Source: an uncultured Candidatus Marinamargulisbacteria bacterium
GTDB taxonomy: Bacteria > Margulisbacteria > Riflemargulisbacteria > GWF2-35-9
DNA length: 64,000 nt
Assembly: GCA_903910705.1 (NCBI GenBank)
Contig: CAIWAN010000104.1
Location: forward strand, 2,453 to 66,452
Direction of reading: 5' to 3'
This document shows, piece by piece, positions 57,514 to 64,000 of this stretch (position 1 is the first letter of the stretch; each line of letters starts with the position of its first letter). The notes beneath the pieces are model-generated. The model worked only from the letters and a program-made list of their open reading frames with translations. It searched no databases and was not told the origin of the DNA. The position numbers were made by a program, and so were the translations under genes.

Positions 57514-57605
57514 GGAGGGTTACCCAAGAGGCTGAAGGGGCGGGTTTGCTAAACCTGTAGGGTGGTTATACCGCCGCGAGAGTTCGAATCTCTCACCCTC
57601 CGCCA
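57514..57605 (+). tRNA. tRNA-Ser (anticodon GCU)
   Basis: Acceptor GGAGGGT/ACCCTCC. 3-bp D stem. Anticodon loop TTGCTAA. Long variable arm. T-loop TTCGAAT. 3' GCCA. Confidence 0.85.
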
Positions 57606-63226: not shown

Positions 63227-63272
63227 ATATATTCATAATCACGGACGTGCGAACCCCTCTTCTAATGAGGTA

Positions 63273-63302
63273 TTGTACAACATCAACAATGATTGCTAGA
63301 AT
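63273..63302 (+). promoter_or_regulatory. putative sigma70 promoter for the intron-containing tRNA
   Basis: TTGTAC, 18 nt, TAGAAT, ending about 20 nt before the tRNA 5' end. Sequence inspection only. Confidence 0.3.
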
Positions 63303-63357
63303 ACATTTCGTAATTTGGAGATTCCCCGGTAGCTCAGTCGGTAGAGCAGCTGGCTGT

Positions 63358-63928
63358 GAATGAGAAAATTGGAGTTTTATCACGACGGATAAACGCAAGT
63401 ACTCGGATCGAAGGGACTATCTAATTCAAGCTGTTAAAGCAAGAAGAAAGAGAGTACGACAGTTAGCGATTGAGTATTTGGGCGGAAAGTGTTGTGCTTG
63501 TGGATATCATAAGTGTGATGATGCTTTAGAGTTTCATCATCTTGATCGTTCTAAAAAGGACTTTGGAATATCTAGTAAGGGATACACTCGAAGCTGGCAA
63601 AAAGTGAAAGAAGAGTTGGATAAATGTCTTCTTCTTTGTGCGAATTGTCATCGTGAAGAACATACAAAGTTGCAGCCCATTCGTGAAAGCGAGTGTGGAA
63701 AAATCGGGTGAACTCATGGAACCCCTAACGTAAAGACGAGGGCAATCATGAGCCAAGCTCATCGAAGGCTAAAGAGTAGATGAGAAGGTGCAGAGACTAA
63801 GGGATGAGAAAGCCAATCAATAAGCCCTACTAGCGCCCGACGCCTAAATCAGTAGACGTTTACATCCAGATGTAAAGCTGACAGGGTGATGATATAGTCC
63901 AATCTTAGGTGAAAGCTTAAGGCAATTG
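63358..63928 (+). mobile_element. group I self-splicing intron carrying an HNH endonuclease ORF
   Basis: 5' splice site follows U (CUGU|G). 3' splice site follows G (CAAUUG|UAA). J6/7-P7 AGAGACUAA paired with J8/7-P7' GAUAUAGUCC, the same consensus as Tetrahymena ACAGACUAAA / AUAUAGUC. P9 hairpin CUUAGGU-GAAA-GCUUAAG with a GNRA tetraloop. ORF inserted in the 5' peripheral region. Confidence 0.55.
63478..63711 (+). CDS. intron-encoded HNH homing endonuclease (minimal, 77 aa, TTG start)
   Basis: CCACGYHKCDDALEFHHLDRSKKDFG....CLLLCANCHREEH has the His-His...Asn...His motif flanked by two CxxC zinc-knuckle pairs. The only start in frame is TTG at 63478. Confidence 0.55.
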   Translation: MGGKCCACGYHKCDDALEFHHLDRSKKDFGISSKGYTRSWQKVKEELDKCLLLCANCHREEHTKLQPIRESECGKIG

Positions 63929-64000
63929 TAACCAGCGGGTCCGTGGTTCGAGTCCGCGCCGGGGAGCCAAATTTACGTTTATTACCGATATAAAAAGCCT

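Follow-up and report, generated by a model that had tools for sequence, protein, structure and literature searches.

A Margulisbacteria-type tRNA-Asn(GUU) gene interrupted at position 35/36 by a group I intron whose HNH endonuclease gene appears to be in early decay

Introduction

By the account available for Williams (2020; bioRxiv 10.1101/2020.01.27.920355), the number of interrupted bacterial tRNA classes has been raised from 4 to 21, and the tRNA-Asn introns inserted between nucleotides 35 and 36 were catalogued there, being cited from that work as 'Asn.4Ug' (PMC13011429). Nakagawa et al. (2026, mSystems; PMC13011429) subsequently reported precise in vitro self-splicing of a tRNA-Asn intron with an omega-G mutant as control. 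The intron, from GCA_016700035.1, splices itself out at 35/36, and the product was sequenced. The same study assigned 25 of 28 introns at 35/36 to subgroup IA and described HNH genes in four tRNA-Asn introns, all from Patescibacteria; among complete genomes, endonuclease-bearing 35/36 IA introns were found in Patescibacteria only, which the authors noted draft genomes might change. Horizontal transfer of 35/36 introns seemed limited, mixtures of interrupted and uninterrupted tRNA-Asn copies were rare, and the mis-calling of such genes as tRNA-Thr(UGU) by ARAGORN was documented. Here we examine a tRNA-Asn(GUU) gene near the end of a 64,000-nucleotide (nt) stretch of contig CAIWAN010000104.1 from an uncultured Candidatus Marinamargulisbacteria bacterium; this whole stretch is referred to below as the window. 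The gene is interrupted by a 571-nt intron that belongs to the published tRNA-Asn 35/36 class. Most likely this is a chromosomal, self-splicing group I intron of that known class, the endonuclease gene of which has begun to decay.

Results

Joining the two exons (35 nt ending in GCTGG-CTGT, and 41 nt running from TAA-CCAGC to GCCA; coordinates in Table 1) gives a 76-nt sequence that ARAGORN recognizes as tRNA-Asn(gtt) with a canonical cloverleaf, and the CUGUUAA anticodon loop of the original prediction is thereby recovered. The insertion point is exactly between tRNA nucleotides 35 and 36, also as predicted, and this placement follows from the U/G rule (U as the last base of the 5' exon, G as that of the intron), from comparison with the empty site in a metagenome stretch designated L147 and from the junctions of homologues. 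Among the registers that keep a 7-nt anticodon loop, only one junction obeys the U/G rule. Run with default settings on the 64-kb window, ARAGORN reported no tRNA at 63323-63969, and its intron mode returned tRNA-Thr(tgt) with an insertion at 33/34, the identical 571-nt insert being displaced by two bases. Since standard tools miss or mis-name the gene, the genome would seem either to be without a tRNA-Asn or to have an extra tRNA-Thr. ARAGORN found no other tRNA-Asn within the window, and Asn decoding may plausibly depend on splicing.

The insert is a group I intron with a complete P3-P9 core, including the P3/P7 pseudoknot. A search with the Rfam model Intron_gpI (RF00028), which had been suggested as a check on the original prediction, gave 90.6 bits (gathering score, 50; E = 7e-22) and aligned the full model (1-253) at 63654-63921. 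Helices were assigned from this alignment together with direct reading, and covariation was assessed in 71 cores, consisting of the window and 70 non-identical homologous cores aligned with MAFFT. Over 53 pairs, 89.8% were paired, compared to 34-51% when the 3' partners were slid by 1-3 columns. Compensatory double changes were present in 39 of these 53 pairs, and none of 500 shuffles reached the observed values. Folded by itself, the core takes P2-P9 as its minimum free energy structure (z = -3.3), so that both covariation and folding agree with the arrangement of P3-P9 around the P7 originally proposed. P7 itself (CAGAGACUA / AUAGUCC), presumably the guanosine-binding helix, is 100% paired and invariant apart from one exchange of AU and UA (61/10); this helix and the P9 hairpin, both named in the prediction, coincide with the Rfam assignments. 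The P7.1-like region is a 32-nt insertion relative to the Rfam model and contains a 29-nt hairpin in which 4 of 4 pairs co-vary where it is present. It is missing in ~40% of family members, and on the basis of this insert the intron is called IA-like. Each helix of the window core, and the P7.1 insert as well, has its counterpart in an alignment with the validated Saccharimonadia intron of GCA_016700035.1, and the intron of GCA_016700015.1 (PMC13011429 supplement) was also aligned with it.

In P1, the 5' splice site is defined by a wobble between U63357 (U35) and G, and the guide sequence, GCAGC(C/U), hardly varies among the 71 homologues. The distance from the 5' splice site to the guide sequence is 314 nt in the window compared to 5 nt in the GCA_016700035.1 intron; judged by its position, the HNH gene occupies the P1 loop as an insertion.

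The locus recurs in an independent assembly, a 2.9-kb contig from an NCBI metagenome-assembled genome (MAG; locus L001) in which the kinase gene, the interrupted tRNA and the intron are all matched at ~99% identity. An assembly error confined to a single data set can therefore be dismissed. The two sequences remain ~99% identical through the tRNA and diverge right after the CCA end (63970-64000 vs. L001:1833 onward), and the different downstream neighbour in L001 suggests a rearrangement or an integration at the tRNA 3' end.

Empty sites were sought by scanning metagenomes with the uninterrupted 27-mer of the anticodon arm, which returned at least 120 stretches. In L147, L166, L168 and L182 an uninterrupted tRNA-Asn is identical at 76 of 76 positions to exon 1 plus exon 2. 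The intron-less gene of L147 adjoins the same histidine-kinase gene as in the window (82.8% over 1823 nt, extending into the first 13 nt of the tRNA), and the intron-less state therefore exists at the corresponding locus in a related organism. This comparison was made by BLAST and direct reading, as an additional 108-nt segment in L147 misleads global MAFFT alignment. With unlike junctions, T|G and G|T, the insert can be placed in only one register. The structure of L147, which is read on the reverse strand (tRNA at + coordinates 343-418), has features of its own: the homologous flank terminates in 13 nt that repeat the start of the tRNA (TTCCCCGGTAGCT), the 108 unrelated nt and then the complete intron-less tRNA-Asn come next, and a 17-nt copy of the tRNA 3' end (GTCCGCGCCGGGGAGCC) lies ~190 nt further downstream. 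Being att-like, the repeats suggest that integration or replacement has taken place at the locus.

Upstream of the tRNA, a promoter-like site was found once, where 1.8 would be expected by chance, and is weak evidence when taken alone. As a separate observation, the ~85 nt preceding the tRNA (~63240-63322) are almost identical in the window, L001 and L147, whereas the adjacent kinase gene is only ~82% identical, and this stretch includes the TG-extended, -10-like TAGAAT.

The reading frame inside the intron was originally described as a 77-amino-acid (aa) HNH open reading frame (ORF). Its assignment to the HNH type held, but its length did not. A database search returned 1102 homologous clusters, typically of 113-125 aa and spanning ~95% of the 115 open codons, and the homologues begin with Met 2-5 residues ahead of a conserved DKRKY motif. 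The 77-aa ORF is without the conserved N-terminal helix (residues 13-39). All of the invariant residues (C43, C46, H58, H59, C92, N94, C95, H96 and H100, in the arrangement CxxC...HH...CxNCH...H) are present, and HNH endonuclease families of PHROG were matched with E-values down to 4.8e-26. An AlphaFold model (predicted local distance difference test score, 72) consists of a long N-terminal helix followed by a beta-beta-alpha core, and a Foldseek comparison of this model with the PDB placed HNH nucleases at ranks 1-8. Among PDB sequences the best match, a weak one (E = 0.004), was a group II intron maturase, through its HNH domain.

The last ~13 codons of the HNH frame overlap the 3' strand of P1, P2 and P3, and the TGA stop consists of P3 and J3/4 nucleotides. 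Because these C-terminal codons lie in the ribozyme, the conserved tail of the family, LQLPRETVVEKSGEFRE, is largely translated ribozyme sequence. Some 182-aa gene calls among the database proteins (P0013 and P0022) continue through the ribozyme core, reading '...GAETRA...GDEIVQS'.

The 5' end of the endonuclease frame is where the window departs from its relatives. An in-frame ATG, GTG or TTG is found just upstream of the DKR motif in 60 of the 64 loci in which the motif is recognisable; there is no such start in the window, L001, L069 and L076. The window does have an ATG at intron nucleotide 3, at the position that matches the start of the HNH gene in L002, but it opens a 10-codon ORF out of frame with HNH by one base. 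Deletion of one T from the TTTT run at 63375-63378 would join this ATG to the HNH frame and give a 121-aa protein beginning MRKLEFITTDKRKY. The simplest reading of these sequences would be a one-base insertion common to the window and L001, marking early decay of the endonuclease. With no canonical in-frame start, it is doubtful that this copy provides an active homing endonuclease.

The window is chromosomal, with gyrB (395-2752), gyrA, a clpB-like gene, lysS, ftsH and nadB. Among named proteins, its GyrB is nearest to that of Candidatus Margulisbacteria / Margulisiibacteriota MAGs (65% identity), and on this affinity the host is placed outside Patescibacteria. An Omnitrophota host, as the MAG label of L001 would imply, was rejected because GyrB is nearest to Margulisbacteria-type MAGs, and for the same reason the 'Omnitrophota' label of L001 is doubtful.

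Related HNH ORFs proved numerous: at least 555 relatives were confirmed in a scan of one genome per species, and at least 556 in viral contigs (IMG/VR; 48-67% identity). The best 80 of the cellular relatives were examined and grouped by record title. About 21 of these 80 loci are from Omnitrophota, 11 from the Nitrospira group, 8 from Elusimicrobia and 7 from the Patescibacteria group, and the remainder are from Melainabacteria, Acidobacteria, Planctomycetia, 'delta/gamma-proteobacterial' MAGs, Aerophobetes, Acetothermia, Binatia, Actinomycetota and others. The junction resolves directly to GGCTGT|intron...G|TAACC in 72 of them. In the other 8, ARAGORN had introduced ghost-exon errors, and once the ghost exons are ignored the same 3' junction and tRNA-Asn 3' half appear. 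Every sampled cellular relative is therefore at tRNA-Asn 35/36 (80/80), and six of the loci were confirmed as group I introns by Rfam. Flanks are alike in pairs of loci with clashing labels (L007 'Planctomycetia' and L015 Omnitrophota; L047 'Gammaproteobacteria' and L055 Patescibacteria). Binning and labels of short contigs look unreliable, and given the conflicting MAG labels the phylum counts are approximate. When introns were compared for horizontal transfer, every pair with at least 85% identity had similar flanks, and no recent cross-lineage transfer was seen among them.

The HNH gene is embedded in the P1 loop of the tRNA-Asn intron in 78 of the 80 cellular loci. In the other two (L016:1492-2291 and L057:1517-2228), a free-standing HNH homologue ends ~115 nt ahead of a tRNA-Asn that carries a short, ORF-less group I intron at 35/36 (312 and 236 nt, respectively), and a TTGACA-17-TATAAT promoter lies between the two genes. 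The best 80 of the viral relatives (L203-L282) comprised 66 distinct sequences. In 39 of these 66 the HNH gene stands alone in a phage tRNA array, no more than 250 nt from an uninterrupted tRNA-Asn(GUU) (for example, L207:1501-1842, L216:1501-1826 and L219:1407-1737). One of the 66 lies beside an intron-bearing tRNA-Asn (L210), with L224 similar at a distance of 253 nt, and one is embedded in an interrupted tRNA-Asn (L218). Immediate tRNA neighbours were tRNA-Asn in 50 of 114 cases, although tRNA-Asn makes up 15.8% of the tRNAs there (binomial p = 1.3e-12, uncorrected for phage kinship). The phage arrays also yielded putative interrupted tRNAs in ARAGORN's intron mode (L224:711-1024, L206:502-1271 and L266:124-895); the calls were Ser(tga), with a 224-nt insert and P7-like motifs flanking, Ser(aga), 681 nt, and Leu(taa), 687 nt.

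Elsewhere in the window, ARAGORN identified a tRNA-Ser(GCU) at 57514-57605 that went unreported in the whole-window Rfam run at the gathering threshold. It scores 50.9 bits in a local search, and the earlier miss was due to the search filter rather than to biology.

Table 1. Features of the interrupted tRNA-Asn locus, in window coordinates
Feature	Coordinates	Strand	Remarks
Promoter-like site TGTACA-17-TAGAAT, TG extension	63274-63302	+	~20 nt upstream of tRNA
tRNA-Asn 5' exon	63323-63357	+	nucleotides 1-35; ends C32 U33 G34 U35
P1 5' strand GGCUGU	63352-63357	+	tRNA nucleotides 30-35; pairs with GCAGCC 63672-63677
Group I intron	63358-63928	+	571 nt; IA-like (P7.1 insert)
10-codon ORF MRKLEFYHDG-stop	63360-63392	+	ATG at intron nt 3; out of frame with HNH by one base
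HNH endonuclease reading frame	63364-63711	+	115 open codons; stop TGA 63709-63711; in P1 loop
TTTT run	63375-63378	+	also in L001
77-aa ORF as annotated by gene callers	63478-63711	+	first canonical start TTG; P0007
Weak P10, GUU	63669-63671	+	pairing possible with AAC of 3' exon
Internal guide sequence GCAGCC (P1 3' strand)	63672-63677	+	direct reading, homologue alignment
P2 hairpin, GAAA loop	63679-63694	+	
P3 5' strand	63704-63710	+	partner 63834-63840; 5/7 pairs compensatory, 89.8% paired
P4-P5 domain	63713-63752	+	P4 63713-19/63746-52; P5 63723-26/63739-42
P6/P6a	63753-63788	+	
P7 5' strand, G-A-GACUA	63793-63799	+	bulged A63794; partner 63895-63900
P7.1-like hairpin	63800-63828	+	between P7 and P3 3' strand; subgroup IA feature
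P3 3' strand	63834-63840	+	
P8, extended hairpin	63841-63888	+	base 4 pairs 100% paired, all co-vary
J8/7 and P7 3' strand AUGAUAUAGUCC	63889-63900	+	
P9 hairpin, GAAA tetraloop	63904-63921	+	94.6% paired, 6/7 pairs compensatory
Terminal guanosine (omega-G)	63928	+	before 3' splice site; invariant in 71 homologues
tRNA-Asn 3' exon	63929-63969	+	U36 through encoded CCA

Discussion

The anatomy of the intron and the published splicing of its homologue point to the following course of events. The pre-tRNA would be transcribed, probably from the conserved promoter-like site ~20 nt upstream, and the intron would fold into its P2-P9 core, with GCAGCC pairing to GGCUGU to form P1 and placing the U35.G pair at the 5' splice site. 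An external guanosine would attack this site, after which G63928 would enter the P7 pocket and exon ligation would restore the anticodon loop. In related elements the HNH protein (beta-beta-alpha-metal, two CxxC pairs) presumably cuts uninterrupted tRNA-Asn, and repair would then copy the intron in; this homing step we infer. As the endonuclease frame of the window copy has slipped by one base, the ribozyme is probably kept by selection on the tRNA and the endonuclease gene is probably beginning to decay. The gene appears to have been caught at an early point in this decay with the ribozyme intact, as would be expected of an intron that has become fixed in an essential gene.

Several observations weigh against parts of this account. 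Covariation offers no test of P1, since nucleotides 30-35 of tRNA-Asn hardly vary, and the guide sequence is uncompensated in three loci with A31 (L007, L015 and L029). P10 is weak, with at most 3 pairs, and we infer the splicing of the window copy from that of a homologue. A second tRNA-Asn gene could be located outside the 64-kb window. As for the endonuclease, Pfam and NCBIfam scans of the 115-aa frame gave no match (19 of 20 family members weakly match Pfam PF01844, but the window copy does not), and none of the Foldseek matches in the PDB was significant (best E = 0.35). Conversely, the rest of the endonuclease frame is intact, with 115 codons free of stops, and a GGAG lies 4 nt upstream of an in-frame ATC at 63379, such that the protein could still be expressed by initiation at a non-canonical codon or at TTG 63478, or by +1 slippage on UUUU.

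If the native HNH protein were made by any of these routes, whether from ATC 63379, by +1 slippage or as the 77-aa TTG product, and cut intron-less tRNA-Asn, the intron would still be an active mobile element. We regard this as unlikely, although every catalytic and zinc residue is kept in the open frame, only 3 substitutions separate that frame from the one in L001, and both the GGAG ahead of ATC and the possibility of tRNA-Phe re-pairing on UUUU in the +1 frame would help it; targets with the identical 27-nt anticodon arm are also abundant, as the metagenome scan indicates. However, the canonical start just upstream of the DKR motif is what 60 of 64 homologues use, and a 77-aa product would miss the helix of residues 13-39. 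UUUU here is without stimulatory context like that of the prfB +1 site, and the codon in the A site is UAU rather than a stop. The intron pairs compared likewise gave no sign of recent transfer between unrelated contexts.

Loss of function could also have gone further, leaving the interrupted gene as a dead relic that does not splice, with Asn decoding supplied by an uninterrupted tRNA-Asn elsewhere in the genome. That only 64 kb of the genome is visible leaves room for such a gene, but we consider a relic very improbable: the exons are 100% identical to the functional-looking uninterrupted gene of L147 and to those of L001, the core helices, the U.G pair and omega-G are all intact, and the upstream promoter region is conserved. 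Practically no weight can be given to a tRNA-Thr(UGU) gene with its intron at 33/34, as called by ARAGORN with the -i option. The original prediction had itself raised the prospect of another junction yielding a non-Asn tRNA, and this alternative was rejected on testing, since the intron would end in U rather than G and the Asn junction alone is common to all homologues. In addition, the tRNA body exactly matches uninterrupted tRNA-Asn genes, and the identical mis-call has been documented and experimentally refuted for a homologue (PMC13011429). Our preferred reading remains a self-splicing tRNA-Asn intron of known class that is beginning to lose its endonuclease.

The original prediction regarded the arrangement as unusual, which does not hold: the class was catalogued in 2020, splicing was shown in 2026, and the HNH form is present in hundreds of genomes. 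What the window copy does add is a host outside Patescibacteria to the range published for endonuclease-bearing tRNA-Asn introns. The HNH gene itself is annotated as a 77-aa hypothetical protein, and the surveys suggest that the HNH-bearing family is far commoner than the published count of four. The strict association of HNH and tRNA-Asn in three architectures, together with the abundance of the family outside Patescibacteria, forms a pattern that reaches beyond the window and may merit a dedicated study.

It is possible, though on balance we lean slightly the other way, that this HNH lineage is a tRNA-Asn-specific homing endonuclease family existing in three states. In the first, the free-standing gene would sit beside an uninterrupted tRNA-Asn in phage tRNA arrays; in the second, beside a tRNA-Asn with an ORF-less 35/36 intron (L016, L057 and L210); and in the third, within the P1 loop of the 35/36 intron, as in the window and 78 of the 80 cellular loci. 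The evidence that the family homes to tRNA-Asn is circumstantial, namely its position within or next to this gene in all 80 cellular loci and in the majority of phage loci. If the proposal is true, the three states would document how a composite mobile intron arises by the merging of a free-standing endonuclease with a group I intron, and the endonuclease-bearing intron would be common in more than 10 bacterial phyla, in contrast to the confinement to Patescibacteria and rare transfer that were inferred from complete genomes. The free-standing phage relatives may be the source or the vector of the endonuclease, in which case the way composite mobile introns arise could be tested directly.

Among described systems, the Patescibacteria 35/36 introns are the closest, as they share with the window the host gene, the insertion point, U-1 and omega-G, the Thr(UGU) mis-call and a homologous core, and four of them carry an HNH gene as the window does (PMC13011429). 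The window differs from them in its host, which is not a member of Patescibacteria, and its HNH gene is probably frameshifted at the 5' end. The classical introns of subgroup IC3 (tRNA-Leu UAA at 34/35, tRNA-fMet at 33/34, tRNA-Arg CCU at 36/37 and tRNA-Ile CAU) likewise belong to the self-splicing class of the anticodon loop and build P1 from anticodon-arm nucleotides. The window intron is unlike these in insertion position, in endonuclease family and, to judge from its P7.1 insert, probably in structural subgroup; the few classical introns with endonucleases have PD-(D/E)XK in tRNA-fMet and LAGLIDADG in tRNA-Arg (PMC13011429).

For the phage relatives, a parallel is found in T4 SegB, a free-standing homing endonuclease encoded in a tRNA cluster with its preferred site inside the tRNA-Asn gene (PMC2330249). 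SegB resembles them in being free-standing in a tRNA array and tied to tRNA-Asn, but unlike the window HNH it is a GIY-YIG enzyme that recognizes the T-arm and is associated with no intron. Collaborative or trans homing has been described for T4 mobE with the defunct I-TevIII intron (PMC2790892) and for cyanophage F-CphI beside the psbA intron site (PMC6083498). As in L016, L057 and L210, a free-standing endonuclease is found there next to an intron with no ORF or a defunct one, and by analogy L016 and L057 resemble the 'free-standing endonuclease plus ORF-less intron' stage of that process. Both mobE/I-TevIII and F-CphI sit in protein-coding phage genes, unlike the tRNA-Asn HNH family. A decaying intron ORF, such as the one proposed for the window, is a known stage of the collaborative or trans homing cycle.

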